NCBI GenBank assembly: GCA_038249465.1
Contig: JBBRWD010000003.1
Coordinates: forward strand, 102,355 to 166,354
Length of the DNA: 64,000 nucleotides
Origin: Limisphaerales bacterium
GTDB lineage: Bacteria > Verrucomicrobiota > Verrucomicrobiia > Limisphaerales > JBBRWD01
Direction of reading: 5' to 3'
Part shown: positions 1-18,000 of the stretch, piece by piece
Numbering within the stretch: position 1 is the stretch's first letter
How the letters are laid out: each line of letters begins with the position of its first letter
Notes under the pieces: model-generated
What the model was told of the DNA's origin: nothing
Seen by the model: the letters and a program-made list of their open reading frames with translations, nothing else
Database searches by the model: none
Program-made: the position numbers and the translations under genes

Positions 1-77
1 TGACGAATCGCCCCTCCCGCCTGACGCGATGAGTATTTCCGCCGAGGTCGCTCACCAATCCCCACTGGTTTCGTGGC

Positions 78-3000
78 TTACGCCGGGCCGAGGCGCTGCA
101 CCAATCCGGCGTCACCATGATTTTCCGGCGGCAGATGGCGGCGCAGGTTTTCCGCGAGTTCATCGAGCACTGCGGGCTGGGAAGGCTTGGCCGCCAGCAG
201 GAGTCGCGCAAGGGTCTTGTCCAGGCTGGTCTGACTCGCGCAGGCCATCGGGACGAGCTGCAGAATCAGGCGCGTGCGCTCGTCCGGCGGGAGGTTCGGC
301 ACGACCAGTGCCTCCGCGCAAAAGCGGGTGGCCAGCCAGGGAGCGAATCGCGGATCGGGAACGCGCACCGGCAGGTTTTCCGCCAGTTTCTTCCCGGTGT
401 CCGTGATCTCCGGATTCAGTCGCTGAAAATCCGCCAGGGGCCATTGATAGATCCGGGCCAGTTCCTCCAGCGAAGCGGCGCTCTTGACCCAGTCCGGCAC
501 CGGATGCGAACCGCCACCCGGGGTGCGTCCGGGATAACCCCACCCCACGACGTGCAACGCGGCAAATTCGGCGGCCTGCGGATTGGCGAGAAACCGGCGC
601 AGGAGTTCAGCGAACGAAACCGCATCCTGGAATGCCGCGACGTTTCCCCACCAGTTGCGTGTCACCGCCAGGCAGCGGCTCACGGTGCGGGCACAAAAGG
701 TTGGATCCTGCACGTTGTCTGCGGCGCGGGCCGCACTCGCCAGAGCCGCGCCGATCTGCGCCGCCTGACCGCCGCAAATCCACAGCGATTCGGCGATCCC
801 CAGACAGGCCGGCGTTTGAAATCCGGCAAAGCCGAAGGGGAGTGACAATGCGAGCCGGAGCAGGCCGTCGGCCTGGGCGCGGTTTCCATCAATCACGGCC
901 AGCGCCTCGGCCAGGGAGCAAAGCCGCCGCCGGTGGTCGCCCCATGAATCGCTGGCGTGGCGTTCCTGTTTGAGTTGATCGGCCTCGACGGCGATGCGCT
1001 GGATGGTTTGATCGGCGGCGGATTTTTCGGTGGGATTCCGCGCGGCGCGCAGGCGTTGCAGCGTCAACGGAGCGGCCGAAGTGAACTCTCTCCCCTGCCC
1101 CGACAAAGCCGCTTCGCAGAGCGTTTGCATCATGCCGCGCGCCCAGGCGTCGTCAGGATGCGTCAGCACGGCGATGGCGATGCGCCAGAGAGATTCATTG
1201 CGATAGACACGATACGCGTTGGCGGAATGCACGGCGATGTAATCGCGCAGCCGCTGCGTGCCGGCTTCCGGCGCCACCAGCGCGTAGGCCACCAGCCGCG
1301 GCGCATGAAAATCCGCGAGGTAAACGCGCCCTTCCGAAGAACCCCCGGGCGGCGCGGGGACGGTCGCTTCGACCGGCGCCAGGCCCCGTGCTTCGCCACC
1401 CAGACCAAATCCGCCGATCTCCGACAAAACCTGCAAGGCTTCCATTTCATTACCGCCGCCGGGCGGTGGCGGCAGGACGGGCGGGCGGCCCTCGAACGCC
1501 GCGTCCACGCGCTCGTTCAATAACGCACCGGAACGCGCGCGCTGACGCAAGGCCTCGGCGGCTGGGCGGTTTTTTGGCAGCGCCAGCCACGCGCCAACGA
1601 GCTGGGCGGCGGTGCGCCATTGCTCGGCCGGAAAGAGTTCGAGCTCCTTCTCGAAGGCATCGACCTCGCCATCGCTGGCGAGCTTGAACAAACGGGTGGA
1701 ATTCAAACGCTCGCGACGAAAGGCGAGCAACGCCAGTGACGCGGTGGATGTCAATGGCACGGCCAGGGCCGGAGGGCGATGCAGGGCCGCATCGAGCGCG
1801 GTCAGCAGGCTGTGATGCAGACCGAGCGCATCCGCCGAGCGACGAAACTGCACCGCCGGATCGACTGCGAAACGCACGAGCCGCTCCGCCGCGGATTTGC
1901 GGGCTGCGGGGTCGAGTTCGCGCGCATTGTGCGCCAGATGCGTGGCGAGGTGGCTGAGGGCGTAGGGACTCAGTTCGGCGACATCGGTTTCAAACAAGCC
2001 CCAGAATCCTTCCGCAAGCGCTTGATGTCCGGTGGCGGGTGCCGCCGAGTATTTCGCGCCCTGGCGCGCGGGATCCGTCAGCCAGTCGGCGAGGGCCTTG
2101 TGGAAGAGCGCATAGCGTGGTGGCTGCTCCAGGCTTGGTCGCAGAAACGAAGTTGCCGCCAGCAACAGTTGCGCCGTGGCCGCCGGTGCGCTTAGGCGCA
2201 AGGCGGTGGCGAGATCGGCAACGGTGAGTTGATCCTGCGCGGCGACGAGCACCTCGAACAATCGCCGCACCGGCTGCCAGCGCGCGTCGCTGGGAAATTG
2301 GCGCTCGAAAAACCACTGAAACTGATCGTGCAATCCGGGCGGGAGCAGAGGCAATTCATCCAGCGTCACCAGTCCGCTTGCGACCGCGTCGAGCGCCTTC
2401 TGCACGTAGAGGAAATTTCCCTGCGCGCGGGAGACGAGGTCGGTCGCGATCTTCGCCGCAGTCGCACCACCCGCCGCCAGCTTGGGCGCGAACGACGTCT
2501 CCGCCAGCCTTTGCAAAGCGTAGGCCTCGAGATCAGAAAGGTTGCGCGGATCCTGCGCCTCGACCTGGCGGGCCTTGAGCGCCTGGAGCGACAGCAAAAC
2601 CTCCGGCTCCTTGCGCGTGGTCGCAAGCAGGCGCAGCCACGGCGGCAGCTTCTCCACGGCGCCACGCAACAAATCAACGATGGTCAGCGGCGCGGGACCG
2701 GAGCCTGCGTTCTGGCGCGGCAGGATCGCCTCGTCGAGCGCGTCGATGACCAGCAGGCGGAGTCCATCGGGCGGAGCCGGCAGGTGGGCGAGCGGATTGA
2801 GCACACCCCGATCGAAGGCGCTCAGCGGATCCTTGTCGCACGCGCTCTCGCTCAAAATCTGGCGCAACTCCGGACGATCGAGTGCGGTGGCATAATCAGG
2901 GCAACGACTCGCAATCATGGCGGCCAGACTGCGCACGCAACGCCCGGGATTCAGCGTCTCCGGCACGCGCGACTGGCAGCAATGGTAGGCGAGCACCGCG

Positions 3001-3689
3001 CCTTCGAGATTGCGGTGGACGAGTTCCGCGACGATGGCGGATTTGCCGATGCCCGGGTCGCCGGTCACCAGGAGCGATGGCTCGCCGCCCTGATGCAGCC
3101 ATTGGCGGATCTCCTCGAACAGCCAGTCGCGTCCGGTGAAGTGTTCGCGCTTGCGATCGAGGAACTCGCCAAAATCCCAGGGTTGCAACTGATCGACCCA
3201 GTTACGGTAAGGAACCTTCTCGCCGCGCAACATTGCCTCCAGCCCTTCGCGCAGTTTCTGGAACGCGAGGTCAAACTCGGCCGGCGATTGTTTCCAGCGC
3301 GAGAAATCCAGGAACTGGAGCCGGAAAATATCCAGCGGCACCTCGCATGGCGGCGCCACGACCATCACCGGCAGGATGGGCGTATGAGTCTGGTAGCAGG
3401 CGAAAGCAACCTCCTGGAGGCAGACGCTGTCCACATCCGCGCCGCCGGCGCGCGTGCGGACCGAGTGCGGGCTGAGCAGCGCCACGAAGAGCTTCGTGGT
3501 CTTGAGGCCCTGCACAATTTGATCGGCCCACGCCGGGCCGCCAATGATCTCCCGCGTGTCCTGCCAGGGCACGTAGCCGAGTTGCGTCAGTTCCTGGTGC
3601 AGTCGCTCTGCGAGATCCTTCGCGTCCGCCCGGCCGTAGCTGAGAAAGATCCGGTCGCCGGAGCCCGTCGTCATGGTGGTGTTACACAT
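78..3689 (-). CDS. TIR-NACHT (STAND NTPase) NLR-like protein with long C-terminal alpha-helical repeat/sensor region
   Basis: Single 1203-aa ORF. The N-terminal ~140 aa look TIR-like ('RIFLSYGRAD', alphaC-like 'SVCLQEV' resembling the SxxCLxEL catalytic-Glu motif). The P-loop NTPase has Walker A 'LLVTGDPGIGKSAIV' and Walker B 'LRLLVIDALDEA'. About 700 aa of Ala/Leu-rich helical repeats follow. The gene runs to within 78 nt of the window edge. Confidence 0.7.
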   Translation of the reverse strand: MCNTTMTTGSGDRIFLSYGRADAKDLAERLHQELTQLGYVPWQDTREIIGGPAWADQIVQGLKTTKLFVALLSPHSVRTRAGGADVDSVCLQEVAFACYQTHTPILPVMVVAPPCEVPLDIFRLQFLDFSRWKQSPAEFDLAFQKLREGLEAMLRGEKVPYRNWVDQLQPWDFGEFLDRKREHFTGRDWLFEEIRQWLHQGGEPSLLVTGDPGIGKSAIVAELVHRNLEGAVLAYHCCQSRVPETLNPGRCVRSLAAMIASRCPDYATALDRPELRQILSESACDKDPLSAFDRGVLNPLAHLPAPPDGLRLLVIDALDEAILPRQNAGSGPAPLTIVDLLRGAVEKLPPWLRLLATTRKEPEVLLSLQALKARQVEAQDPRNLSDLEAYALQRLAETSFAPKLAAGGATAAKIATDLVSRAQGNFLYVQKALDAVASGLVTLDELPLLPPGLHDQFQWFFERQFPSDARWQPVRRLFEVLVAAQDQLTVADLATALRLSAPAATAQLLLAATSFLRPSLEQPPRYALFHKALADWLTDPARQGAKYSAAPATGHQALAEGFWGLFETDVAELSPYALSHLATHLAHNARELDPAARKSAAERLVRFAVDPAVQFRRSADALGLHHSLLTALDAALHRPPALAVPLTSTASLALLAFRRERLNSTRLFKLASDGEVDAFEKELELFPAEQWRTAAQLVGAWLALPKNRPAAEALRQRARSGALLNERVDAAFEGRPPVLPPPPGGGNEMEALQVLSEIGGFGLGGEARGLAPVEATVPAPPGGSSEGRVYLADFHAPRLVAYALVAPEAGTQRLRDYIAVHSANAYRVYRNESLWRIAIAVLTHPDDAWARGMMQTLCEAALSGQGREFTSAAPLTLQRLRAARNPTEKSAADQTIQRIAVEADQLKQERHASDSWGDHRRRLCSLAEALAVIDGNRAQADGLLRLALSLPFGFAGFQTPACLGIAESLWICGGQAAQIGAALASAARAADNVQDPTFCARTVSRCLAVTRNWWGNVAAFQDAVSFAELLRRFLANPQAAEFAALHVVGWGYPGRTPGGGSHPVPDWVKSAASLEELARIYQWPLADFQRLNPEITDTGKKLAENLPVRVPDPRFAPWLATRFCAEALVVPNLPPDERTRLILQLVPMACASQTSLDKTLARLLLAAKPSQPAVLDELAENLRRHLPPENHGDAGLVQRLGPA

Positions 3690-3707
3690 GGTGTTTATCC
3701 TGGGGTG

Positions 3708-4883
3708 CTATGGATTCGTTGGAGCTTGGTTGCCGGCGGCGATGGCCTTGACTCGGGCTTGTTGCGCCTCCGCGTCCTTGTTGGCGAGCACGGGCCGGAG
3801 ATTGCTGAGCGAACGGAGCAGGTTGAACCAGAACGGCGCGCCCAGACTCAACATAGCGATGCTGACCATGACGCCACCCCAATGTCTCCCGACCGCCCGC
3901 GACCACGACTCGCCCGGCAGCCGCGAATGGATGACCCCGAGTGCGAGGTGGCTCTCGACAAGGCTGTGCAGATGGTCCGCCGACTGGCGAAGCGCCGCCT
4001 GCGGGACGAGCGCCTGATATTCTTCGAGCCAGCGGGCGGAATTGGTCACACCGTTCGCCTGGCATTGCGCGATCAGCCAGTTGGTGCCACTGCGCAGGTC
4101 GGTGATGGCTGCGATCCCGGAGAATTTAGCCAGTTCGTTGGTGTGCAGGGCGAGCAATTGTCCGGCAGCCACGCGATAGACCGCGGCGGGCAGATTCGTT
4201 GAGCCGGCCTGCATTTCATCGGCCTTCTTGAGAAGCGCGTCGCTGGTGGCGATAACCCGCAGGCGCAACTCGGGACTGCGCGCCAGTTGCTGCCACAGCT
4301 CGATGCTATCGACCAGCAGCACGAGTGAAACGATCCCGGCGCCCAGGATGGTGATGAGGCGCATGTTGGCGGAAAACCGCTGCGAAACTCGGCTCATGCT
4401 GGACTCGAACCATTCGGCCAGGCCGTCCTCGATCCCTTGGAGTTTGGCGAGTTCCGTTGTCGCTAGTTCGCGGAACGACCCGGGCACGTTGAGCGAATCG
4501 AGCACCTTGGTGCGGGCCGCCTTTTCCTGCGCGGTCGTCTGCGGCATGGCCAGCGCGGTGCGCCAGCGGGAGAGAAGACCGGTCAATTCCTCCGGCCGGA
4601 TGTGGCTCGCGTAACGCCACCAGGTCCACCCGATCTTCCGGGCGGCGAAGGTCGAATCGGAGAGCAGCGGATGCAGCAGAATGTGCCGGGCGAGAGTCTG
4701 GGCCATTATCTCATCGAGCTGGGGTGCCAGGGTGGCAAAGAGCTTTATGAGACCCCACTTCAAGTTGAGTCCGCGCAGGCCGAGCAGACCGGAGATCGCC
4801 TGGGTCAGCGCGGTGATGACGAGGCTCAGTCCCGCCATGACGGCGGCGAAGGCGAGGATGGTGTCGAAGTGTTCGAGGTTCAC
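3708..4883 (-). CDS. predicted three-TM membrane protein of unknown function, co-oriented 18 bp upstream of the TIR-NACHT gene
   Basis: 391-aa ORF with hydrophobic helices at the N-terminus ('ILAFAAVMAGLSLVITALTQAI'), the middle ('LITILGAGIVSLVLLV') and near the C-terminus ('VMVSIAMLSLGAPFWFNLL'). No recognisable catalytic motif. Its stop lies 18 nt before the start of the next gene, consistent with an operon. Confidence 0.55.
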   Translation of the reverse strand: MNLEHFDTILAFAAVMAGLSLVITALTQAISGLLGLRGLNLKWGLIKLFATLAPQLDEIMAQTLARHILLHPLLSDSTFAARKIGWTWWRYASHIRPEELTGLLSRWRTALAMPQTTAQEKAARTKVLDSLNVPGSFRELATTELAKLQGIEDGLAEWFESSMSRVSQRFSANMRLITILGAGIVSLVLLVDSIELWQQLARSPELRLRVIATSDALLKKADEMQAGSTNLPAAVYRVAAGQLLALHTNELAKFSGIAAITDLRSGTNWLIAQCQANGVTNSARWLEEYQALVPQAALRQSADHLHSLVESHLALGVIHSRLPGESWSRAVGRHWGGVMVSIAMLSLGAPFWFNLLRSLSNLRPVLANKDAEAQQARVKAIAAGNQAPTNP

Positions 4884-5082
4884 GGTGGTTCCTTTCGTTC
4901 TCTGATTTGCCTCGGGACTTTGGTGTGTTTTGGCGTCGGCCGATGGCGCCCTCGCCCTGCGGCCGCACGGTGTGAGTCTATCAGGAACTCCCGGCGCGAC
5001 CAGATGATTTTAAGGCAAACCGATGCCAGGCAGTAGTGGCCAAGCAGGAGCGTCCTTCCGCCCCAGCGGCCGAAGGGCACTG

Positions 5083-5652
5083 CTACGGTTTGACCGCCTC
5101 GTAGGTGGCGCGAAACAGCGCCTGGTCCACCACCCAGACGTCCTCGGGATGCGCCACGGCACGGTCGCGAAAATTTTTAAGAACGAAGTCGCCCGGTTTG
5201 CCCGCCAGCGTTCCCCAGGTGGCTGCCACGGAAAACGGGTGTGGCACCGGCGCGGCCATGACCCCTTCCGCGTCGGGACGCGGCTGGTATTTTCGCCAGC
5301 CGCCTTCGGTCACGGCGCCGGTCGGCGTGTAGCGGGCTTCGAGGGTTTTCGCGGATTGCGGCCAAAGATCGCCCGCCTCGCCACGGCACAGGTAATCGCC
5401 GGCCTTTGCGGTGACGTCTCCTTCGAGCGTCGCGACGGTCTGTTCGCGCTCGATCAGCCGCGCCCAGATCGGCCGGTTCTTCTTCGCGTGAAACCAGGCG
5501 CGGGCGGAATCGAGTTCGTCAAGCAGGGCTTGGTTGGGTGAGATCGGGGCGTTCATTTTGGCAGGCTGAGGTGAATGATTGCATCCCGGGAGCAGGAACA
5601 GAGTCGCAATGGCACCGAGGCTCATCAGGCATTTTCTCCGGACGCTGAACAT
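5083..5652 (-). CDS. hypothetical lipoprotein
   Basis: 189-aa ORF with a signal peptide plus lipobox 'LFLLPGC'. No recognised domain. Confidence 0.5.
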   Translation of the reverse strand: MFSVRRKCLMSLGAIATLFLLPGCNHSPQPAKMNAPISPNQALLDELDSARAWFHAKKNRPIWARLIEREQTVATLEGDVTAKAGDYLCRGEAGDLWPQSAKTLEARYTPTGAVTEGGWRKYQPRPDAEGVMAAPVPHPFSVAATWGTLAGKPGDFVLKNFRDRAVAHPEDVWVVDQALFRATYEAVKP

Positions 5653-6096
5653 GGTGCGATAGTGCGATGCCGCGCCGGGACATCAACTTCATTCCTGCCC
5701 ATTCGGATCGGGAGCTGTTCGAACTGGACCAGAAATTGTTGATGGGGGAACGCGTGTCCCAAGCATTTCGCCCGCTCTCTCGTAGCGCGCAGGTTTCCCA
5801 GCCTGCTGCATCGCGGGTTCCCCAACCCGCCTGCCCCTCGAACTGCTGAACCACCGGCCCATTTTCTTGTCGAGAATCTTCCCGGCGATTCCATCCGCCG
5901 CGCGCCAGGCCACCGGGTGCCACTGCGTTTTGGCAATCGATTGGCTCAGTGCTACCGCAGCCCGGCCTGCCGTTTGCCAGGCTTCAGGCGCCGCTCAGGT
6001 TGCGTCCCCGCAGAGCCCCATGCTCCGCTGAAGCAAATCCATCTTCGTGCCCTGTCCAGGCGCCGACAACAAACAACCTCCTCTCACGTCATTATT

Positions 6097-6136
6097 CCAC
6101 TTTTGATCGCACAGCCTCGTCCACTTTTGATCGCAC
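6097..6136. repeat. tandem pair of family-B TIR-like fragments 'ccacttttgatcgcac' (solo-TIR remnants) adjacent to MITE A1
   Basis: 'ccacttttgatcgcacagcctcgtccacttttgatcgcacc'. It matches the family-B terminus 'ccacttttgatcacac' with 1 mismatch, twice. Confidence 0.4.
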
Positions 6137-6170
6137 CACCACACAGACGATTGCGAAGATGTCCTTGCGC

Positions 6171-6329
6171 GGGCGCATCTCTCGACACTGCCCCCGGCGC
6201 GCGGCCTTCAGGCCACTTCGATAGACAGGGAGACAAGGTGCCATCATTGCCCGGCTTGCGCACGGTGAAGCGACGTCAACGTCGCGCTCCAACCCAGTTG
6301 CATCCGGGGCCAAGTGCGCGGATGCGCCC
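6171..6329. mobile_element. MITE-like palindromic element, family A, copy 1 (~159 bp, ~24-bp terminal inverted repeats)
   Basis: Left TIR 'gggcgcatctctcgacactgcccccg' and right TIR 'cggggccaagtgcgcggatgcgccc'. Internal stem 'gaagcgacgtcaacgtcgcgctcc'. The same family occurs at 9855 and 20234. Confidence 0.6.
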
Positions 6330-6404
6330 TCCTTGCGCGGAGATGGTCATTGCCCGTGTCTTGGGCATCCGCTAGTTGTTCGCGCGCGGTGTTTGTCCGC
6401 ATTC

Positions 6405-7091
6405 ATGAGCTTCCAATGGTATCTCTGGTCATCGGGTTGTGGGGACGCCGCGGAAAACATGGCGGCCGACGAAGCCCTGCTCGAAGGCACACGCGTCCAT
6501 GGCCGGCCGGTGCTGCGCGTTTATGGCTGGGCGGTTCCCGCCGCCACGTTCGGCTACTCGCAACACTATGCGGAGGTCGCCCGTGTCACGTTGCTGCGCC
6601 CGCTCATCCGCCGTCCCACCGGTGGCGGTCTTGTGCCGCACGACGCGGACTGGACCTACTGTCTGGCCATTCCGCCCGACAACGCGTGGAATGCGCTCAC
6701 TGCGGTGGAGAGTTACCGCCGCGTGCATGAATGGATTCGCCGGGCGTTGGCGCAGATGGGCGTCGAGACGGAACTCGCGCCGTGTTGTCGCCAGGATGCG
6801 CCCGGGCAATGCTTCGCCGGCGCGGAGAGATTCGATGTCCTCTGGCAAGGGCGGAAGATCGCGGGTGCCGCACAACGCCGCAATCGCAGCGGTCTGCTGA
6901 TTCAAGGCTCGGTGCAGCCGCCGCCGCTGCGTCTCTGCCGCGAGGATTGGGAGCAGGCGATGACTGAAACCGCGACGCGTGAATGGAGCGTGGCGTGGTC
7001 GCCGCTAAAACCGTCGGAGGCGTTTCGCGAAACCATCCGCCGGCTCTGCGAGGAGAAATACTCGCGGGACGCATTCAACCGGCGGCGGTGA
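6405..7091 (+). CDS. lipoate-protein ligase / octanoyltransferase family protein (BPL/LPL catalytic domain)
   Basis: Motif 'RRPTGGGLVPHD' resembles the LplA/LipM 'RRxTGGGAVxHD' signature. The start was chosen at the internal ATG (MSFQW...) because the upstream part of the long ORF overlaps a repeat element. Confidence 0.55.
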   Translation: MSFQWYLWSSGCGDAAENMAADEALLEGTRVHGRPVLRVYGWAVPAATFGYSQHYAEVARVTLLRPLIRRPTGGGLVPHDADWTYCLAIPPDNAWNALTAVESYRRVHEWIRRALAQMGVETELAPCCRQDAPGQCFAGAERFDVLWQGRKIAGAAQRRNRSGLLIQGSVQPPPLRLCREDWEQAMTETATREWSVAWSPLKPSEAFRETIRRLCEEKYSRDAFNRRR

Positions 7092-7345
7092 AGACGTGTC
7101 CGTCGGGGTGGCCGGGCAGCGGATAAACCGGAACTCCGAAATCGGGACCAGGAGCGCGCAGGCATCCCGCCTGCAGGGGGCTTCGCATCTCAGGCACGAC
7201 TCAAATCCAGGCGCCGATGCAGCGGGACGGCTGTGCCAAGTCCTCCGCTGTCATCTGCCAGGGCGGAAAGCGATGGCACCCCGCCGTCCGGGCGCTTTGA
7301 ATGCCGCCGCGCCGGCAACGGTCAAAGCTGGCGCAAAAATCTATC

Positions 7346-8653
7346 ATGATGAAAACCACTCTCTTTATCAACGTCTCCGCGTGCCTCGCCTCGACGGCGC
7401 TGCTCGTCACTATGCTCCCGGTTTCGGCTGGCGACTGGCCGCAATATCGCGGACCGAATCACAACGGGAAATCCTCCGAGACGATCAACGCCGATTGGGG
7501 CGCTGCCGGACCGAAACCCGTCTGGAAAATTCCGACCAAGAATGGTTTTAGTTCCTTCGCGGTCAGCGGCGGCAAGGCTTACACGCAGGTCAACCGCGAG
7601 ATCAACGGCGGGCCGCGCGAGATCGTCATTGCTCTGGACGCGAACACGGGCAAGGAACTGTGGCTGGCGGATGTCGGCTCGGGCAAATACGACGGCGGCG
7701 GCGACGCAGGGACGTCCGAAAACCGCGGCGGCGACGGACCGCGCTCCACACCGACCGTGAATGACGGCAAGGTCTATGTGTTCAATCAGTTTCTGGTGGT
7801 GTACTGCCTCGACGCGCAGAACGGCAAATTGCTTTGGAGCCGCGATCTTTTGAAGGACCACGGCGGACGCAACATCGGGTGGAAGAACGCCGCTTCGGCG
7901 GTGGTGGATGGTGACCTGGTGTTTGCCGCGGGCGGCGGCCCGGGCGAATCGTTGCTGGCCCTTAACAAGAACACCGGGGAAGTCATCTGGAAGGCGCACG
8001 ATGAAATGATCACGCACGCCACGCCGGTGGTCGCCACGATCCAGGGCGAGCGCCAGGTGATCTTCTTCCTGCAAAAGGGTCTGGTCTCGGTCGCGCCGAA
8101 GGACGGCAAAATCCTCTGGCGTTTTCCCTTCCGCTATAATGTCTCCACGGCGGCCTCGGCCGTCGTCTGCGGCGACATCGTGTATTGCTCGGCGGGTTAC
8201 GGCGTCGGCGGCGGCGCGTGCAAGATCACCAAGGACGGCGACCAGTTCACGGCCACCGAACTCTACAAGATCACGGGCGACCGACAGATCGCCAACCACT
8301 GGAGCACCCCCGTCTTCAAGGATGGCTTCCTGTACGGGATGTTCAGCTTCAAGAAATATGGTGTCGGTCCGCTGAAGTGCGTCGAGGTCGCCACCGGTCA
8401 GGTCAAGTGGGAGAAGGCCGGTTTCGGTGCCGGCAACGTGACCATTGCTGGCGACAAGATCCTGGCGCTGGCGGACACGGGGGATCTCGTGGTGGTCGAA
8501 GCGACTCCTGACGCCTACAAGGAAGTCGCCCGCACCAAGGTGGTGGCTGGCAAATGCTGGTCCACCCCAGCCTTCAGCAACGGCCGCATTTACGTGCGCA
8601 GTACCACGGAAGGCGCCTGCCTCGACGCCTCCGGCAGGCCCGCGCAGAATTAG
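7346..8653 (+). CDS. PQQ-like beta-propeller repeat protein (BamB-like fold), secreted
   Basis: Signal peptide 'MMKTTLFINVSACLASTALLV' followed by 'DWPQYRGPNHNG', typical of PQQ-like propeller proteins. Repeated 'G.VYV/..DG' blades follow. Confidence 0.65.
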   Translation: MMKTTLFINVSACLASTALLVTMLPVSAGDWPQYRGPNHNGKSSETINADWGAAGPKPVWKIPTKNGFSSFAVSGGKAYTQVNREINGGPREIVIALDANTGKELWLADVGSGKYDGGGDAGTSENRGGDGPRSTPTVNDGKVYVFNQFLVVYCLDAQNGKLLWSRDLLKDHGGRNIGWKNAASAVVDGDLVFAAGGGPGESLLALNKNTGEVIWKAHDEMITHATPVVATIQGERQVIFFLQKGLVSVAPKDGKILWRFPFRYNVSTAASAVVCGDIVYCSAGYGVGGGACKITKDGDQFTATELYKITGDRQIANHWSTPVFKDGFLYGMFSFKKYGVGPLKCVEVATGQVKWEKAGFGAGNVTIAGDKILALADTGDLVVVEATPDAYKEVARTKVVAGKCWSTPAFSNGRIYVRSTTEGACLDASGRPAQN

Positions 8654-8737
8654 AATCGCCAGCGGTTTCTCCACGCCGATGCCAGCGGCCTTTGTGCGCA
8701 GCTTCGGCGTGTTCGTTTTTTCATCAGGTGGCGGGAT

Positions 8738-9670
8738 TCACGGCTTGGTCATCTGCGCCGCCTCGACCATCGCGCCCACGAAATCCGCCACCTTCCACTC
8801 ATTCCCATCGAACACCTTGAAGACGCGCCCGCGCGGGTCAAGCACGACGGTGCGGCTGTTGTGGTTGAAGCCGGCGCCGTCCCGCCAGAACATCTGCCCA
8901 AAGTGATCGCCGATGGCGGTGATATCCACCAAGTCACCCGTTGCGAATGTCCACCGCGCGGCGTCCTTGCGGTACTGCGTTGCGTAGGGCTTGAGCACCC
9001 TCGGCGTGTCGTATTCCGTGTCGAACGTGAGGCTGAGCAGATGCCAGTTGGTCGGCCCATTCGGCCAGGTGAGAAGCTGCCGCTCCGCCGCCGCAAAGTT
9101 CCCGGACATGCGTGGACAAAAGGTTGGGAACGGGCAGCGCGTGAAGATGAAGGTGATGCCCAGGGCGCCGCCGCGATAGCCGGTGAGCTGGAAGGCCCGT
9201 CCCGCATCGTTGGTCAGCGTGTAATCCGGCATCACATCGCCCACCTTCAGTTCATCCACCACCCGCGCGGCACGGACTTCATCCTGGAGCGAGGTTCCCA
9301 CGACGCTGGCGGTCCCGACCCTCTTCACGTGCTCGATCCAGCCATCGTCGTCGGTGACGACCATGCGAAACTCGACGGCATCGTTCGTCTGCAGGCCTTC
9401 CAGTTCGCGCGCGTCCTTCACCTCGAAGAGCATCGTCATCGCCTCCATGTAGCCGGGGATCTTCTCGTGGGTGATGCGGACGCGTTTCTTTTCGGGGATG
9501 AGTTGCTTGATGACTCCCTTGACCTGGTAAGCCTGTTGGTTCGTCGGCGCAACGACCGTGTGGGTGACCGGCGGCGGTGTCGTCGCGGGAGGTGTGACAG
9601 GTTTGCACCCCCACAATGTCAGAGCGAGGAGAATGCTGACGTTGAAGTGGCTTCGAGTAACTGCTTCCAT
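8738..9670 (-). CDS. SCO1/SenC family copper chaperone with N-terminal CusF-like metal-binding domain; lipoprotein
   Basis: Lipobox 'LTLWGC'. A CusF-like segment ('GVIKQLIPEKKRVRITHEKIPGYMEAMTMLFEV') precedes a thioredoxin-fold SCO domain with the 'CPFPTFCP' (CxxxC) motif. The start was set at the internal Met preceding the signal peptide. Confidence 0.65.
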   Translation of the reverse strand: MEAVTRSHFNVSILLALTLWGCKPVTPPATTPPPVTHTVVAPTNQQAYQVKGVIKQLIPEKKRVRITHEKIPGYMEAMTMLFEVKDARELEGLQTNDAVEFRMVVTDDDGWIEHVKRVGTASVVGTSLQDEVRAARVVDELKVGDVMPDYTLTNDAGRAFQLTGYRGGALGITFIFTRCPFPTFCPRMSGNFAAAERQLLTWPNGPTNWHLLSLTFDTEYDTPRVLKPYATQYRKDAARWTFATGDLVDITAIGDHFGQMFWRDGAGFNHNSRTVVLDPRGRVFKVFDGNEWKVADFVGAMVEAAQMTKP

Positions 9671-9854
9671 GGGCCGCATATAAGCCCGCGCCACCATCAT
9701 TGGCAAGTCCGCGGTCTTCCAAGGGTTTCGGCCATTTGAACATGGGCGCGTTGCAAACTTGCGATGCCCCGCGCGACAACAAAGCGTTGCCTGGCCGGAC
9801 GGAAAAGGTGCGTCGCCACACTGCAACCACGCCATCCCAACCGCAAGGCTCCGG

Positions 9855-10014
9855 TGAGCGCATCCGCGCACTGCCCCCGGCGCGCGGCCTTGAGGCCGCT
9901 TCAGCGTTCGATGGGTGTTGGTGAAACATTGCCGGACGGTCTCTCGAACGATGAAGCGACGTAAACGTCGCGCTCCAGCCCGGGTGCCTTCGGGGACAGT
10001 GTCGAAATGCGCCC
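9855..10014. mobile_element. MITE-like palindromic element, family A, copy 2
   Basis: 'gagcgcatccgcgcactgcccccggcgcgcggccttgaggccgcttcagcgttcgatggg...gaagcgacgtaaacgtcgcgctccagccc...cggggacagtgtcgaaatgcgccc' is >85% identical to copy 3. Confidence 0.6.
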
Positions 10015-10378
10015 GGCTCCGGTTTGATGGCCAGAGGTGTCTTGACAGGCGCCGCGCGCTCCCTAAGTTTAGCTTTGGTCATTCCGTAAGTTACCAATGT
10101 TAAAGTGGGAAGTAAGCCGTGGACTGGGGAATGACGGCGCCCGAGGGTTGCCGCGCAGGTGGAACGCAACCGCAATGATCGCCCGGGCCTCGCGTCCTGC
10201 CTTCCCTTTCTGGCTCTGCCCTGCCAGGGAGCACCACAGGCCACCGCCCAGGCGAGCCGCTGATTCGACCGCACGCTACTGCCGCGATTGCCCAACCCTC
10301 GAGCCCACGCCGATCCACGACGGCGTTTCGATTTTTCCCGCCGAATCACCCCAAATGGATCACCGCAAGGAAGCAGCC

Positions 10379-13300
10379 ATGAAAAACCAACACCACCCAA
10401 GGACGGTCCTTCTTCTCATCCTCAGCCTGGCGATGCACCTCAGCTCCGGCCTGGCACGCGGACAGGTGTGCGCGGCCAATCTGACCAATCGCGCCGATGT
10501 GTTTCTGGCCACGCCGGGGAATGACTATAATGTGTATTTCGATGTCAACGGGATGAGTGCGGACTCCTTCCCCGCAGTCAACGCCGGCTGGGTGCGCGAT
10601 GCATTGTTTGGGGCGCACCATGCCTTCGTGACCACCAACGGCTTTCGCAATCCTTCGTTCAGCGCCAATCCCAACGACACCTGCATTTCGATGGCGGTGG
10701 GCTGTTTCGCTGATGCGCCGCTGGATCGCATCCGGCTTCAATCCGGTTGCATGGCGGGCCTGACCGAACCCTTCACGCGCTCGGTGGTGACGCACGAGTT
10801 GTTTCATCACGCCCAATACGCCTACATCAACTTCAATGACTGGCCCTCTTGGGGCACCTGGACCATCGAGGCGACACCCTCGGCCATGGAAGACCGCTCC
10901 TTTGCCGACGTGGATAACAACGGGGCGAACTCCCGCTACGTCGGTGACGTGAACTTCTTCCTTGGGACGCCGAACACGACCTTGATGAGTCGCAGCTATG
11001 ACGCTGCACTCTTTTGGAACTATCTGGCCGAGCGACTGGGCACAGTCACGACGGAACCCAACCGCGGCGTGGACGTCATCCGCGGCTTTTGGGAACGGGC
11101 GCGCGGCAACAGCCCGGACAGCGTTCGCTACGTGCGCGATACCATTCAGGCCCAGGCGCCGGGGCGTACGTTGGAGGATTTGTTCATTGACCTGGCCATC
11201 GCCGGGTTCACCCACAATCTGGATCGAAGTCGTTTGCCGGCCGACCAGCAGGCGCGGTATGCGTTCTTGGACGAATCGGCCACCGGCGGCGGCACCGCCT
11301 ACGGCGCCTCGGCGCGAACCACGGTGACCTCGCTCAATACCACGCTGAGCAGCAATGTCGTCCGCTGGGGTGCGCAGTACTTCGTCGCCAACGTCGGGGA
11401 TAAAGGCTGCCAGGCCGTGGGCGCGTGGGGCAAAGCCAGGAACAATCAGAACCTGGGCTGGGCGGTGGTGGGCGTGCGGAGCGGAAACAAAGTGACGGAG
11501 ATAGCCCGTGGACAAGGGAGTGTCTTCTACCGTTCGTTCATCGATAATCCGGTGGATCCCTTCGTCCAGTTGGCGCTGGTGGTGGTGGGCTTGAATGAAG
11601 CCGCTGATTTCGACTATGCCTTCGGTTTCGGCCAGATCGGAGCCACCATCCTGCTGCCCACCATGGACCGGATGGCGTTTGCCGGCCGCCGCGATGATCC
11701 CCGCCGGTTCCAGGTGCGCCTGCGGATTACTGGACCGTCGGTGCTGACCCCGGCGGGTTCTGCGCCGATTTCGATTCGCGGCCTGGACCCGTCGATCTTC
11801 CGGATTGTCCTGCGAAGCACCAGCACCGGGGCGACTTATCCCGTCACCGTGGTCAACTCGGCCTACGTCAGCGGCGAATACTGGCTGGTCGCATCGGCAC
11901 CGGTCATCTCCAACGCCGCCGATGGCGACCTGTATGACCTGGAAGTCTGCGTGTGCACCACCGAACGCGACTGCGCCTCGCAGCTTGTCAATCCGCGGTC
12001 TGTTCTCTACGGCGACATCCAATACAACCAGATGCTGGTGCTGGATCGGTCCTACAGCATGCATTACCCGGAGCCGGTCGAAAGTTCGAAGATCGAGGCG
12101 GCGAGAAATGCGGCGCGAATGTTCGCCGATACCGCGGCGGACAACGATCGGCTCGGTTTGGTGACGTTCACCGGCGACAACACTGAGTGCAACCTCGACG
12201 CCACGGTCAACCGCCCGTTGCGGCTCATGAACGATGGCGGCATCGACAACCGCGGGCCGCTCATCAGCGCCATCAGCGGCGTGGTGGAGGATGGTTGGAC
12301 CTCCATCGGTGACGGACTGAAACTAGGCCGCGACGCTCTCCTGACAGCCTCGCCGCCGCTGGGCTTGCGCGACGTCAACGGGCTGCTGCTGCTAAGTGAT
12401 GGACTGGAGAACGAGGGAGATTTCTGGGCGGCGGCGAACACGGCGTGCCCAACGCCATTCCCGCCGCCGGTGCGCGATTCGTTTGACCCCGTCTCCGGTG
12501 TCGCTCGTAACATCAAGGTGGATACCATCGCCCTCGGATCCAATGCCGATCAGGAATTGCTGCAACGGATCGCGACTTTTACCCGGGGAACCTTCTATGC
12601 CGTCAGCGCCGATCCGCCCACCGGCGGAGGCGCGGCGCGCGCGGGCATCGCTCCGGCCAGCCCAGCCAGCGAGCCGCCCTCGATGAGCAGCCTCCAAGTG
12701 CCCAACCGGCTGGCCCACGTCCACCGCAGTGCCCAGGAGGAATTGCACGGGCACGATCGCCTGTTTTTCCGCGCCTTTGGATTGAACGCTGGCGCCAACA
12801 ACTTCGTGGTGCCGGTGACCGAACCCAGCGAAGGCGGCGTGCAGGAAGCCAGCTTCACCTTCAACTGGCACCTCCAATCCGTGACCGTAAAGGTGCATCT
12901 CTTCGATCCAGCCGGCGACGAAATCACCAGTTCCACGCCGGGCTGGAGTGTGTTTCAGGATGACACCCACCAAGTCTATCAGTTCAACGGCACCCTGCCG
13001 GCGGGCGACTACGCCGTGACCGCCGAGGCCAGCGGGCCGGTGCAATTGCTGGCCATGCTTTCCGGCTTGTTGATCCGAGGCGTGGATTTTGATCTCTACC
13101 TCTCGCAGCCGCGCGGCCTGGCACCCAATGCCGAATGTCCTTTCCGCGACCGCTATGATTATTTGCGCGGCCTGCCGGTGGATATCTTCGCCACGGTCAC
13201 CGACTACAAAGGCGGCATTGGTGGCCTGAGCATGGAGGCACGGATTGAGAATCCCGACGGTTCCATCAACCGGCTCAGCCTCTACGACGACGGCCTGCAC

Positions 13301-14686
13301 GACAATGGCATCGAGGGCGACGGTATTTACGGCAATCGCTACACCCGCACTCCCTTCTCCAGCCAGGGCGGCCAGCCGGATTTCCCCGGCCTTCCGGCTG
13401 GCCAGTGGGGAAGCTACACCGTCCAGGTCTTCGCCCAGGGCAAGGGCCATTCGGGCGATCCGTTTGAGCGCTTCGCCACGCGATTCTTTCAGGTCTATGA
13501 ATTCGTGGAAAATCCCCAGTTTAAAATATGCGATCCCGACACGGATGATGACGGCCTCCCGGACCGCTGGGAGGATTTGTATGGCTTGAACAAGCTGGAC
13601 CCCGCAGATGCGGCGCTCGACAACGACGTTGACGGGCTGAGCAACAAGGAAGAGTTCCAGCATGGCACGCTGCCGTTCAATCCGGACACCGACGGCGGGG
13701 GCGAATCCGATGGCTCGGAAGTCGCCGCCAGTCGCGATCCGCTCTACGACAAGGACGACCTCCTGCCTGCCATCATGGACTACGGCGTGGTCACCCACGT
13801 ATTCCACGTTCCGGTTCACGAGCCTGAACCCGAAACTCTGATCCTCCATTACCCAGTCAACACCGCCTATCGCTTCATGGAGGTCTGGAGATTTGACTGG
13901 GGCACCCTGACCTGGCTGCTCCACGAGCGGGTCGATCTCACCGTGGACCACTCCGGCATCTACTACGACCGCGGACTGGTCAACGACGTCGTTTACTTCT
14001 ACGCCTTGGTGGCGGAGGGCCACAGCGGCGCGCGAACCGCCGCCACCGCGTGGTTTGGCGGTGTGCCCAAAGCCGATCCGATTCCCCCGGACGGTGCCAT
14101 GATGATTAACATGGGCGACCACTTTACCGCGTCACCCGTGGTGAAGGTTCAGTTCGGGGTAAGTCCCGATACCAAGGAGGTCATGTTGTCTGAAGATCCC
14201 GCCTTTGCCGGGGCAATCTACCAGCCCTTCCAAGCCGAGCTTCCGTTCGCGCTCACATCTGGTCCCGGCCCGGTGACCGCGACGATTTACGCCAAACTTC
14301 GCGATGCCGCCCTCAATGAATCCATCGCCATCCATGATTCAATCCTACTCAACATGGCGGATGACTCCGACAACGATTCGCTGTCCGACATCTGGGAACG
14401 CCGGTTTTTTGGCGATCTTCGCTTCGGTCAGAATGACAATCCGGATCACGATGGTTTCTCCAACCGGGACGAGTTCCGCAATGGCACCGACCCGACCGAT
14501 CCGCGCAGCCCGCGGCGCGCCGGGGTAACCTCCATCCGCCGGGACGGCGGTCAGACGGTCATCGAATACGAAGGGACCCTCCGAAGTTCTGAACACGTCG
14601 ATGGGCCATATCTGGCCGAGCCGGGAGCCACCTCGCCTTATCGATTCACGCCCACGGATCGCAGCCGGTTCTTCCTGGCTGAATAA
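10379..14686 (+). CDS. very large secreted zinc metalloprotease-like protein with vWA domain and thrombospondin-type-3-like Ca-binding repeats
   Basis: Signal peptide 'MKNQHHPRTVLLLILSLAMHLSSGLA'. HExxH motif 'VVTHELFHHAQY'. vWA MIDAS-like 'MLVLDRSYSM'. Repeated 'DPDTDDDGLPDRWED'/'DNDVDGLSNKEE' segments. The C-terminal module ends in 'SRFFLAE'. Confidence 0.65.
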   Translation: MKNQHHPRTVLLLILSLAMHLSSGLARGQVCAANLTNRADVFLATPGNDYNVYFDVNGMSADSFPAVNAGWVRDALFGAHHAFVTTNGFRNPSFSANPNDTCISMAVGCFADAPLDRIRLQSGCMAGLTEPFTRSVVTHELFHHAQYAYINFNDWPSWGTWTIEATPSAMEDRSFADVDNNGANSRYVGDVNFFLGTPNTTLMSRSYDAALFWNYLAERLGTVTTEPNRGVDVIRGFWERARGNSPDSVRYVRDTIQAQAPGRTLEDLFIDLAIAGFTHNLDRSRLPADQQARYAFLDESATGGGTAYGASARTTVTSLNTTLSSNVVRWGAQYFVANVGDKGCQAVGAWGKARNNQNLGWAVVGVRSGNKVTEIARGQGSVFYRSFIDNPVDPFVQLALVVVGLNEAADFDYAFGFGQIGATILLPTMDRMAFAGRRDDPRRFQVRLRITGPSVLTPAGSAPISIRGLDPSIFRIVLRSTSTGATYPVTVVNSAYVSGEYWLVASAPVISNAADGDLYDLEVCVCTTERDCASQLVNPRSVLYGDIQYNQMLVLDRSYSMHYPEPVESSKIEAARNAARMFADTAADNDRLGLVTFTGDNTECNLDATVNRPLRLMNDGGIDNRGPLISAISGVVEDGWTSIGDGLKLGRDALLTASPPLGLRDVNGLLLLSDGLENEGDFWAAANTACPTPFPPPVRDSFDPVSGVARNIKVDTIALGSNADQELLQRIATFTRGTFYAVSADPPTGGGAARAGIAPASPASEPPSMSSLQVPNRLAHVHRSAQEELHGHDRLFFRAFGLNAGANNFVVPVTEPSEGGVQEASFTFNWHLQSVTVKVHLFDPAGDEITSSTPGWSVFQDDTHQVYQFNGTLPAGDYAVTAEASGPVQLLAMLSGLLIRGVDFDLYLSQPRGLAPNAECPFRDRYDYLRGLPVDIFATVTDYKGGIGGLSMEARIENPDGSINRLSLYDDGLHDNGIEGDGIYGNRYTRTPFSSQGGQPDFPGLPAGQWGSYTVQVFAQGKGHSGDPFERFATRFFQVYEFVENPQFKICDPDTDDDGLPDRWEDLYGLNKLDPADAALDNDVDGLSNKEEFQHGTLPFNPDTDGGGESDGSEVAASRDPLYDKDDLLPAIMDYGVVTHVFHVPVHEPEPETLILHYPVNTAYRFMEVWRFDWGTLTWLLHERVDLTVDHSGIYYDRGLVNDVVYFYALVAEGHSGARTAATAWFGGVPKADPIPPDGAMMINMGDHFTASPVVKVQFGVSPDTKEVMLSEDPAFAGAIYQPFQAELPFALTSGPGPVTATIYAKLRDAALNESIAIHDSILLNMADDSDNDSLSDIWERRFFGDLRFGQNDNPDHDGFSNRDEFRNGTDPTDPRSPRRAGVTSIRRDGGQTVIEYEGTLRSSEHVDGPYLAEPGATSPYRFTPTDRSRFFLAE

Positions 14687-14689
14687 CCC

Positions 14690-14863
14690 GGGTGTGATTA
14701 AAAGCGGGTGAGGCCGGCACGCCCGGCGAGGTCGGGCGCGTCACTCCGTGCGCTCCGTCGGGAATGCTGGCACCGCTCCGGCGGCGCGCGCGGAGTGGCT
14801 CGCCCTACTTCCCAGGGTTTTCCGCCGGTTCGGGGTTAACCTCACCCACTTTTGATCACACCC
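14690..14863. mobile_element. MITE-like element, family B, copy 1 (174 bp) with 24-bp TIRs and 9-bp target-site duplication
   Basis: Left TIR 'gggtgtgattaaaagcgggtgagg' and right TIR 'cctcacccacttttgatcacaccc' (22/24 inverse match). The element is flanked by the direct repeat 'gaataaccc' at 14681-14689 and 14864-14872. The left TSD contains the TAA stop codon of the metalloprotease gene. Confidence 0.7.
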
Positions 14864-15068
14864 GAATAACCCGGGACTTCCACCACTGCGAATAGTCGCG
14901 GCTGGCAAAGACTGGACGCCCATCTGCTGACAGCCTCAACGAGGCCCACGAAGATCGGCGGAAATGATTCCCATCGTTCTCAGCACCGAGGCGCTGACGG
15001 TTCCAGCGCCGGATATCCGGGAAGATTCCAGCGCGTGGCGTTTCCCGAGGCACCTTCCACCCGCGCGG

Positions 15069-18000
15069 TCACGGAATGAGGCGCAGCCGGTAAAAGCGTG
15101 TGTGTTGTGGGCCGGCCGGCAGGATGTCGTCGAAGTGTTCTTCAGTCGCGGTCGCGACGCGCGGGAGGCCGGCGGCGGTGAGTGGCCGGAAGACGTATTC
15201 GAGTCCGTTGGCGTACTGGATTTCGTAGCGGCGGCCTGGCACCGCCTTCCACGAAAGGCGCACCGTGTTGCCGGGCAGCATGGCGGCAGTCAGGCGCAGC
15301 GCCGAGGTGGGATCGCGCGGGTCGGTATCGGTGAGGTACTCGCCGAAGTTGGACACGCTGTCGTCATCTGCATCCTTGTCGCAATCGTCTGTCTCCGGGT
15401 TGAGTTGATGCAGTGTTTCCCAGGCGTCGGGCATGCCGTCACCGTCGGAATCAATTTCGGCGCCAGTGACGATGGTCACTTGGTCCGGCGTGCCGTCGGC
15501 ATTCAGGTCGAGTTCGGAGCGGACCTGCTTCACGCGCGGCCAGTCTTGCAGCACGACGCAATGCACCGCGCCGTTCGGCACGTTGAACGGGCCAAAGACG
15601 GCGCACGTGTTGTTCGTCGTGCGAGCATCCACGGCGTCCACGCGGAGGTAATGTTGCGTCGGCTTGCCGCTGTCATTGCGGTAATCGACGGCCCGCTGGC
15701 TCTTGAGGGCGCGGAATTCCTGGGTCCGGTTGCTCACGGCGTCGAGGCCGAGCCATTGGAACGTGGCGCAGGCGCCGTTGCTGATGGCGAAGCCGATCCT
15801 TGGAGTGAAGTTGCTGATGGCGGCCTGCGGCGTGAAGCGAAAGGAGCTGAGTTGATTGGAAATCGCAGTGAGGCTGATGCGATTGCTGTGGCCGGGCGTG
15901 CTGCCGGCCATTTCCAATTGCAGCATGGTGCCGCCCGCCGCGACGTGGAAGACGTTCGCGTTGCTGCCGCGCATGTGAATGTCGATGGCCGGAATGCCGT
16001 TCGAGATAGGCAGCAGAATGGGGATGCTCCGCGTGCGGTTTGTGGGAGTTCCCAGGATGGGAATGGCCTTCAGGCCGGGCAGGTTGTTCACGAAGGTGCC
16101 GTCTTGGCGCCAGCCCCATTCCCTGCCGGCCGGCGCGGTGAAATGCGCGTCGGCGTCGCCAGCCACCACGACGAGAAAGGTGCCCAGCGCGAGGGCAAAA
16201 TCGTAGAGGCCGGGCGCGGTGCGGGTGTCGGTGTATAGCCGGCGTGGCACGGTGAACAGCGCGGTGCCGGTCCAACCGCTGCCCGGGAAAATGTATTCGT
16301 TGGCACTGTGATCGATGTCGATGAATTGATTGGTGACGCACCAGTCGTCCGCGGCGGCGCCGATGGCGCACGGGCTGTTGTTGTCGTAAATCCAGATGCG
16401 CGTGATGTTGGGGTCGCCGCCATAGTTTCCCTCCACGCGGTAGGGCGACACGCAATGGCCGCCCTCAAAACCCTGCACCATGCAGACGGCCTGCGCGGTG
16501 GTGCCCGCGCGCAATTCGGGCAGACGCGCGACGGGATCGCCGCCGAAGTTGGGTGAGAACACATCGACATCGAGCTGCGAGATCAGGTGGTTCAAATACT
16601 CCGCGCTGGTCTGCGCGCCGTGGTTCATGCGGATGCGCGCCCAGATGTCCTTGGGGATGGGAGGGCGGGTGTACCGGCCGCCGGTGTTGCCGGTATCGAA
16701 CTCGCCGGGTGCCCCGGGGTTGTCAATGCCATTGGCGAAGAGCGCCTCGGGATCATAGGTCTGCGGGATCTCCAGCAGATTGAACAGTTCCAACGCGGTG
16801 CCGGAGAAGCCCACGCAACTGCCGGTGCTCTTGTCGATGACGATTTTATGCACCGGCCACCACAGGCCCCAATACAGAGGGTCCGGGATGTGGGCGCCGC
16901 AATCACCAATCGGGTCCACGCAGATGTAGGCGCTGTAACCGTAGCCGGCGAGGAACTCGTTGAGGAGGGCGTCGTGATCCTCGTTATCAAAACTGAACCC
17001 ATGAATGGTCGGATAGGGCGGACGGCGCAGCGTGAAGGTGCCGACGGTGCTGTATTCAATCTGTCCGGGACGGAACCACGCGTCGCGCGCGACCCATTGC
17101 CAGGGCGATTGGAACGAAGGCACGAAGGGGCCGCTGGTGTGTTGGCGCACGAAGTCGGGAACAAACGGCGCCTGCACGCGTACCGTGGTGGCATTGACCC
17201 GCTCGACGTTTGCAGCGGGAAGCAACGTCCATGCACCGGGGCTGGTCGGGAAGGTTCCAGTGATGGGTGACAGGGAGTATTCCATCTCCGCGTGCAGGTT
17301 CGTGCCGGTGAGCGTGACCCATTCGCCAAGTCCGCCAATGCCGCCCTGGCGCACGGCGATGCCGACCATTGGATTCGTGGGCGACGCGCCGGTGATCCCG
17401 GACGCGACCAGCAGGGGTCGTTGCACGAAGAAATCCACGTTGGCGAATTGGAAGGTCCCGCTGGCGCCGGTGGGGAGGCCGGCAAAGATGACGCGATTGG
17501 TGTAGATGAATTGCGGCTGTATTCCGGCGGCACTCACGCGGGGCAACGTGTAGCGGCCGAACGCCTCCAGTTCCGCCTGCGCGAAAATGAACGTCGTCCC
17601 AGCCGGCACCGGCTCGTCAAAACTGAACCGCCCAAAGCTGTCGGTGAACTTGCTGTAAGCCACGCTGTCGGCGATGAGTGACACGCGATAGTTGGGCAGC
17701 GGTGTGGAGGTGTTGGTGAGGCCGGAGAAGACCCGTCCGCTCCAGCGCACCCGTGGCAGGTTTGCGCTGCCTTCGCCGTAGGACATCGTGAGCCAGGTCG
17801 CGGGCGACGCCTCGAAGCCCGCCTCGGGGATGAAGGTTTGGTCGCCGAACGAAGTGAAATTGATCTGTCCCAGCGCCACTCCATCGAACTCGTTGAAGTT
17901 TCCCAGCAGCGTTCGGGCCACGCGAAACTCCGTGCAGATCGCGGTGGAAATTTCACCGCCGCAGAACCGCTGGCCCACCTGATAGAGACTGCGCGGCGTG

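Follow-up and report, generated by a model that had tools for sequence, protein, structure and literature searches.

A bacterial TIR-NACHT NLR-like gene with a rare helical sensor, next to a gene of a widespread three-transmembrane protein family

The window analyzed here, a 64,000-nucleotide (nt) stretch of contig JBBRWD010000003.1 from a Limisphaerales bacterium, begins with two adjacent minus-strand genes, one for an NLR-like TIR-NACHT protein and one for a membrane protein with three transmembrane (TM) helices, which were originally predicted to form an undescribed two-gene defence module. Coordinates throughout are positions within this window, and the gene pair is read from right to left. 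The NLR-like gene lies at 78..3689 (-) and encodes 1203 amino acids (aa), and the membrane gene lies at 3708..4883 (-) and encodes 391 aa; the two same-strand open reading frames (ORFs), the 18-nt gap and the operon end at position 78 are all as predicted. The spacer between them (3690..3707, -) includes an AGGA ribosome-binding site and holds no terminator, and a promoter and terminator scan was uninformative, its counts being equal to the shuffled expectation. The GTG start of the membrane gene finds support in homologues whose sequences open with M-[NT]-L-E-H. This gene and the NLR gene are probably co-transcribed.

Pfam places a TIR_2 domain at residues 14–138 of the larger protein (3276..3650, -; 63.8 bits), followed by a P-loop NTPase at residues 188–361 (2607..3128, -) that is matched by NPHP3_N at residues 188–359 (59.3 bits, cut-off 24.8) and, just above threshold, by NACHT at residues 207–361 (27.1 bits, cut-off 26.7). 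Both nucleotide-binding motifs are intact, with Walker A GDPGIGKS at residues 210–217 (3039–3062, including Lys216) and Walker B LLVIDALDEA at residues 312–321 (2727–2756). Next come TANC1-like AAA lid and winged-helix domains spanning residues 385–587 (1929..2537, -), the lid (AAA_lid_TANC1, residues 385–461) scoring 25.7 bits, below its 29.1 cut-off, and the winged helix (HTH_TANC1, residues 464–587) scoring 38.7 bits. No solved structure with a sequence relationship to the NACHT region was found. The nearest solved relatives of the TIR domain are the SARM1 TIR NADases, at a similarity of 20–24 bits, and Glu93 (codon 3411–3413), within the TIR motif SVCLQEV at residues 88–94, aligns through "CLQEV" with the glutamate in "HKEIV" of SARM1, the catalytic E642. 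The homologue consensus "SVCLDEI" retains this residue, and Glu93 is the putative catalytic glutamate of the window protein. Judged by its sequence, then, the 1203-aa product is a TIR / NACHT / winged-helix / helical-sensor NLR-like protein, and the originally predicted architecture with its Walker A and B motifs holds up. It is of an already described kind, as TIR and sirtuin domains are among the N-terminal effectors of the bacterial NACHT NLR-related proteins, which have an effector-NACHT-sensor layout and are mostly single-gene systems (Kibby et al., 10.1101/2022.07.19.500537), and the label "undescribed" does not apply to it.

The C-terminal sensor (residues 588–1203; 81..1928, -), about 615 aa long, was modelled by AlphaFold2 (AF2) as a confident helical solenoid that is nearly all helix (pLDDT 84.9, pTM 0.85), with only weak TPR-like fold matches. 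It is rare, being conserved in approximately 25 proteins, and carries many invariant residues among 21 homologues; a search with the sensor alone returned 6 proteins and no new architectures. Within it, residues ~1044–1110 (360..560, -) form a beta-alpha-alpha-beta insert in the AF2 model. The insert resembles in sequence a LysM domain carrying an insertion after strand 1, and Pfam LysM aligns to residues 1073–1098 at 13–15 bits, below its 20.9 cut-off, and is matched in 2 of 21 homologues. When a profile of this sub-region was compared with the PDB, the top three matches were Ecp6, SafA and phage P2 tail protein X, all of them LysM proteins (E 0.06–0.13). All ~20 full-length homologues conserve the insert, with the pattern "HVVGe.Y ... 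tLe.LAr.YQW.L..w...NPEi ... VRVPDP". From sequence and model together, the insert is probably LysM-like. We found no description, in the searchable literature, of LysM in the sensor of a cytoplasmic bacterial NLR.

A search covering 5.8 billion proteins recovered approximately 20 full-length homologues of the NLR at 42–46% identity, some of them from Burkholderiales or from Betaproteobacteria metagenome-assembled genomes. Hundreds of further proteins share just the N-terminal 48% (TIR-NACHT-WH, WH being the winged helix), their sensors being of the WD40, TPR or HEAT type, a modularity that has been reported for bacterial NACHT proteins (10.1101/2022.07.19.500537). At four other loci with full-length NLR homologues, no copy of the membrane gene is present. 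One of these homologues stands alone with a convergent caspase gene (L168), another lies between housekeeping genes (L169), and a third stands alone, a few kb from TPR-S, Patatin and CHAT genes (L170). The fourth (L004/L005; 6199–11651 in L004) encodes a homologue of 45% identity with a CHASE2-TIR gene 11 nt upstream and other TIR, Patatin and TPR-S genes near. In L004 the CHASE2-TIR protein, another membrane-associated protein, takes the position held in the window by the three-TM gene, and a 1062-aa protein without a Pfam match follows. A 388-aa gene near the L004 homologue was considered as a divergent membrane gene and rejected (BLASTP E = 1.3).

The 391-aa membrane protein has hydrophobic segments at residues 8–26, 176–194 and 338–356 (TM1 4806–4862, TM2 4302–4358, TM3 3816–3872), in keeping with the three spaced TM helices first described for it, and the positive-inside pattern suggests an N-out, C-in topology. 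It has no match in Pfam, NCBIfam or PADLOC. Its model is all-alpha and finds no fold match among solved structures, with neither a nucleotide-binding nor a pore-toxin fold recognized, and it lacks the alpha/beta ligand-binding domain fused to TM helices that is a trait of signal-gated membrane effectors. A SLOG-, CARF-, SAVED- or Macro-type pocket was rejected on the grounds of the all-alpha model and the missing fold match, and a receptor role through such a pocket, as first envisaged, loses its footing with it. A short helical motif, "..MPxTTxxEKxxR...L..LN.P", was seen in cytoplasmic loop 1 of the sub-clade of close relatives to which the protein belongs; the window protein has one copy (4400–4560, -) and 508–515-aa variants have three (P0004, P0005 and P0009 examined), the loop being otherwise variable.

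Despite having no annotation, the membrane family is very large, comprising 12,247 clusters at 50% identity (E ≤ 1e-3), with relatives in at least 309 species-level genomes, mostly of Verrucomicrobiota and Acidobacteriota. No relative was found in viral contigs, and a phage or prophage origin of the gene was rejected on this basis. None of the best 150 representatives is fused to any immune domain.

To place the membrane gene in its wider context, we used two sets of loci: 160 distant ones (80 from genomes and 80 from metagenomes, with neighbours taken within 8 kb), the metagenome relatives among the matches listed being at most 41% identical, and a close sub-clade of 8 loci that came from exact-protein look-ups. 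In the 160 distant loci, tblastn detected nothing related to the TIR, NACHT or PGDYG domain of the window (PGDYG being found in the next gene upstream, described below), and since tblastn with the window TIR sees only TIRs close to the window's own, Pfam neighbour censuses were added. A single gene resembling the sensor was found among these loci, 6.6 kb from the membrane gene (L157), and clustering of the neighbours across all 160 showed no broadly conserved partner. The exact trio of PGDYG, membrane and TIR-NACHT genes was seen again in one place only, a relative of 81% identity (L086). Co-conservation of the membrane gene and the NLR fails at the family level. The original prediction had itself held that a lack of co-conservation in related genomes would count against the pair, and at the family level this is what we find. 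The membrane gene is missing from four NLR loci and this NLR from 160 distant membrane-gene loci, so the proposal of a dedicated membrane partner is not sustained. Of the two-gene module, plausible co-transcription and, as a weaker form of the idea, a repeated adjacency of the sub-clade to different TIR and SIR2 genes survive, while the dedicated pair, recurring only in L086, does not.

On balance, we favour a reading in which the NLR is an autonomous TIR-NACHT sensor that occupies a variable, conflict-gene-rich slot next to a probably co-transcribed membrane gene that it does not require. We prefer this because its motifs are intact, its homologues with swapped sensors are many, its homologues at the four other loci are never accompanied by the membrane gene, and the membrane family is huge and has no conserved neighbour. 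The absence of this TIR or NACHT from the 160 distant loci, the mixed downstream neighbours of the family and its eCIS-type (extracellular contractile injection system) context in one clade, both described below, the all-alpha membrane protein with no fold match and the ordinary chromosome to the right speak for it as well. Under this reading, the C-terminal sensor with its LysM-like insert would bind a trigger, which could be an invader protein or a glycan or other envelope-derived molecule. Trigger binding may then free the NACHT NTPase to oligomerize, as in known STAND (signal transduction ATPases with numerous domains) proteins, and the clustered N-terminal TIRs would switch on NAD+ cleavage, after which the infected cell would stop growing or die. 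The position downstream of membrane-family genes would be a variable one, often taken by TIR, SIR2, STAND or eCIS cargo genes, and the NLR would be its occupant in this lineage.

Several observations weigh against so passive a role for the membrane gene. The window's sub-clade (≥47% identity) is monophyletic in the family tree, and in 5 of its 8 loci with known context a TIR or SIR2 gene adjoins the membrane gene, with partner genes that differ; the remaining 3 have neither. The neighbour is a TIR-NACHT gene in the window and L086, a TIR-X gene followed by TPR-S and Patatin genes in L087, a convergent SIR2_2 gene next to P0005, and a 456-aa TIR gene directly upstream of the membrane gene in L171, where pYEATS, TPR-S-Patatin, TIR and NB-ARC-TPR genes come after. 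Spacing within the sub-clade is tight (18 nt, a 1-nt overlap, ≤21 nt), with the TIR or SIR2 gene on either side. Scattered distant members are likewise followed immediately, on the same strand, by a gene for a TIR-WD40 (L123), SIR2-STAND-TPR (L045) or PG_binding-TIR (L132) protein. When TIR/SIR2 frequency at the first downstream position was compared, using seed profiles, with that at other positions in the same loci, the odds ratio was 8.2 (p = 0.007), a figure that takes its background from those same loci, involves small numbers and includes related loci that overstate independence. TIR/SIR2 neighbours were counted at 5 of the 8 sub-clade loci and at about 7 of the 160 distant ones (p = 4e-5), the numbers again being small and the sub-clade loci related to one another. 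The adjacency appears to exceed the expectation for a purely passive neighbour.

Other distant membrane homologues are followed by two TIR genes (L164) or by an island with SIR2 and TIR genes (L157). In L157 (5524–14785), DUF7379-like, SIR2_2 (735 aa) and TIR (467 aa) genes come after the membrane homologue, and then a convergent gene, cut by the contig end, whose product is 34% identical to the window NLR sensor. The L171 island (3830–17548; also in L172) lies on one strand and encodes, in order, proteins of 603 aa and 265 aa, the 456-aa TIR protein, a 515-aa membrane homologue and a 229-aa protein, continuing with pYEATS, TPR-S-Patatin (891 aa), TIR (377 aa) and NB-ARC/nSTAND1-TPR (1344 aa).

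The main alternative, though we think it rather unlikely, is that this adjacency reflects function, with the membrane protein serving as a partner shared by NAD+-targeting immune proteins (TIR or SIR2, with or without STAND) in the role of anchor or platform, membrane-disrupting effector or guarded target; in the window it would act jointly with the TIR-NACHT sensor. Besides the excess of TIR/SIR2 neighbours in the sub-clade, such neighbours are spread over at least four separate clades of the family's tree, and the spacing suggests translational coupling. A one-sided insertion hotspot does not account for a TIR gene that is upstream in L171 and downstream elsewhere. The NLR homologue in L004 is preceded at 11 nt by a different membrane protein, CHASE2-TIR, and the loop-1 motif of the sub-clade, with its variable copy number, could be a docking site. 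However, the neighbouring immune proteins are unrelated in architecture, full-length NLR homologues in four genomes do without the membrane gene, and a TIR or SIR2 neighbour is missing in over 90% of the family. The lack of a nucleotide-binding or pore-toxin fold and of any immune-domain fusion among the best 150 representatives also speaks against a shared partner, as do statistics that overstate independence among related sub-clade loci and the probable loss of one of the sub-clade TIR neighbours.

That neighbour, a TIR gene of L087 (1529–2851) adjoining a membrane homologue of 63% identity, has an in-frame stop exactly at the conserved Trp of the catalytic "W.C..E" motif ("DWS*CTYEA") and from its sequence is a probable pseudogene, if not a sequencing error. 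As conflict genes turn over rapidly, the window's NLR gene could likewise be a decaying or inactive remnant whose adjacency to the membrane gene is coincidental. We consider this very improbable, since its 1203-codon ORF is intact and keeps all catalytic motifs, an 80–86%-identical orthologue is present in a related genome, and its composition is unremarkable. On the basis of composition, a recent horizontal acquisition of the NLR was also rejected, its overall and third-codon-position GC content (GC and GC3) both being unremarkable.

A different setting for the membrane family was observed in approximately 20 of the 160 distant loci, which show an eCIS-type context. In L024 (300–9074) and L014 (152–10644) the membrane gene comes last after genes for a Baseplate_J-like protein, a LysM protein and DUF6519, the series in L024 having overlapping start and stop codons with 4-nt overlaps, and in L014 an eCIS_core (DUF4157) gene follows the membrane gene. 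DUF6519 has been described as eBAP5, a baseplate-attachment domain of eCIS tail fibres (PMC12923769). The Pfam census found DUF6519 as first upstream neighbour in 16 of 127 loci, and the first downstream neighbours included ABC_tran (5), PG_binding_1 (5), CHAP (4), eCIS_core (3), DUF900 (3), SIR2_2 (3), TIR_2 (3) and SLOG/LOG (3). In one verrucomicrobial clade, the membrane gene thus appears to belong to, or to border, a contractile-injection-system operon. No eCIS genes were found in the window or its close relatives, and the accessible literature contains no description of the membrane family as an eCIS component.

Taking these contexts together, we regard it as unlikely that the three-TM family, or at least the window's sub-clade with its loop-1 motif of variable copy number, is an unrecognized membrane docking platform or membrane-disrupting executor recruited time and again by unrelated TIR, SIR2, TIR-NACHT and SIR2-STAND proteins and by contractile injection systems. 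If the TIR/SIR2 and eCIS links were functional, the family would be a membrane component, new to science, that several bacterial conflict systems share. Even if the TIR/SIR2 link is not functional, genes of this very large and unannotated family can serve to mark a variable position for conflict genes in Verrucomicrobiota and Acidobacteriota.

The gene 199 nt upstream of the membrane gene (5083..5652, -) encodes a 189-aa PGDYG-domain lipoprotein, recognized by Pfam and by a signal peptide with the lipobox LLPGC. Outside the window it adjoins the membrane gene in L086 alone, the relative of 81% identity, and is absent from L087 and from the 160 distant loci. It was considered as a third component and rejected on account of this restricted synteny, a PGDYG fragment in L004 being marginal, and is probably unrelated to the gene pair. 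On the other side, the first 32 nt of the window (1..32, +) are the 3′ end of a convergent gene that lies mostly past the left window edge. The contig was extended there (L001, 6181–9009), and the gene has Pkinase and WD40 matches, encodes a Ser/Thr kinase with many WD40 repeats (>942 aa) and stops 45 nt from the NLR stop codon.

On a further reading the locus is not anti-phage. The NLR would instead be a sensor of envelope or peptidoglycan status that works with the upstream three-TM protein and PGDYG lipoprotein in a regulated cell-death or stress circuit. Circuits of this sort have been proposed for the STAND proteins of bacteria with complex lifestyles, in which conflict and apoptosis-like systems are described (PMC7159879, PMC8195603). 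The LysM-like insert, the envelope proteins encoded upstream and the convergent kinase-WD40 gene next door are consistent with such a circuit, as is the location of homologues, which lie near caspase, CHAT, Patatin and TPR-S genes and not near classical phage-defence genes. Nonetheless we find it improbable, as the LysM assignment is below curated thresholds, ligand binding by the insert is putative, LysM-like folds are protein-protein modules in phage baseplates too, and neither the PGDYG gene nor the membrane gene is conserved alongside the NLR family.

The flank to the right of the gene pair is ordinary chromosome, with genes for lipoate-ligase-like, PQQ/BamB-like propeller, CusF-SCO1, VWA, Laminin_G_3, APH and PKD proteins. 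The operon had been said to lie beside repeat-rich accessory DNA, which we did not observe: there are no tandem repeats between 1 and 12 kb of the window, and the sole dispersed intergenic repeat is one of ~130 nt (6186–6332 and 9853–9998, in pieces 83–94% identical). Its two copies bracket the block of LplA-like, PQQ and SCO1 genes. A 17-nt unit also occurs twice, at positions 6096 and 6120, 24 nt apart (6096–6136). Nothing beyond these repeats underlies the earlier remark.

Compared with named defence systems, the locus matches none, as had been anticipated: PADLOC and NCBIfam match the TIR part only, far below their cut-offs. No named Avs (antiviral STAND) model in PADLOC-DB v2.0.0 was matched at E ≤ 1, the only matches being those of the TIR region to SAVED_TIR, Aga_TIR and PDC-S66. 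For Thoeris, the NCBIfam model ThcB4 scored 25.9 bits against a cut-off of 220 and the locus holds no SIR2/SLOG or Macro effector gene, and the NCBIfam retron-TIR match was also far below cut-off. The membrane gene invites comparison with CBASS 2TM-SAVED, Pycsar TM and Thoeris TM-Macro ThsA, where a membrane protein is likewise encoded beside a TIR or nucleotide-signalling gene, but the window's protein is all-helical, has no ligand-binding alpha/beta domain and no PADLOC match, and is not co-conserved with the NLR. Its likeness to eCIS operons lies in the ~20 of 160 loci where homologues follow Baseplate_J, a LysM protein and DUF6519/eBAP5 and precede eCIS_core, and the difference is that the window and its close relatives are without these genes.

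The NLR itself shares with the Avs proteins, including the SIR2-STAND Avs5 (clades in PMC13581612), a STAND sensor whose N-terminal effector targets NAD+, a C-terminal pattern-recognition domain and an expected oligomerization, but its NTPase belongs to the NACHT clade and its effector is a TIR rather than a nuclease or SIR2. With the SARM1-type and plant TNL-type TIR NADases it has in common the conserved position of the catalytic glutamate, the SARM1 TIR being its nearest solved relative, whereas its scaffold is NACHT as opposed to SAM in SARM1 and NB-ARC in plant TNLs. The bacterial NACHT (bNACHT) proteins share its N-terminal effector, a NACHT with Walker A and B and a C-terminal sensor. 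It was matched to no numbered bNACHT clade, its NACHT fits NPHP3_N/TANC1-type models best, and its sensor is the rare helical solenoid with the LysM-like insert. The NLR therefore adds to the large bacterial TIR-NACHT set a sensor type that combines a helical solenoid with a LysM-like insert, and should the insert indeed bind glycans, bacteria would have here a counterpart to the way NOD1 and NOD2 sense muropeptides.

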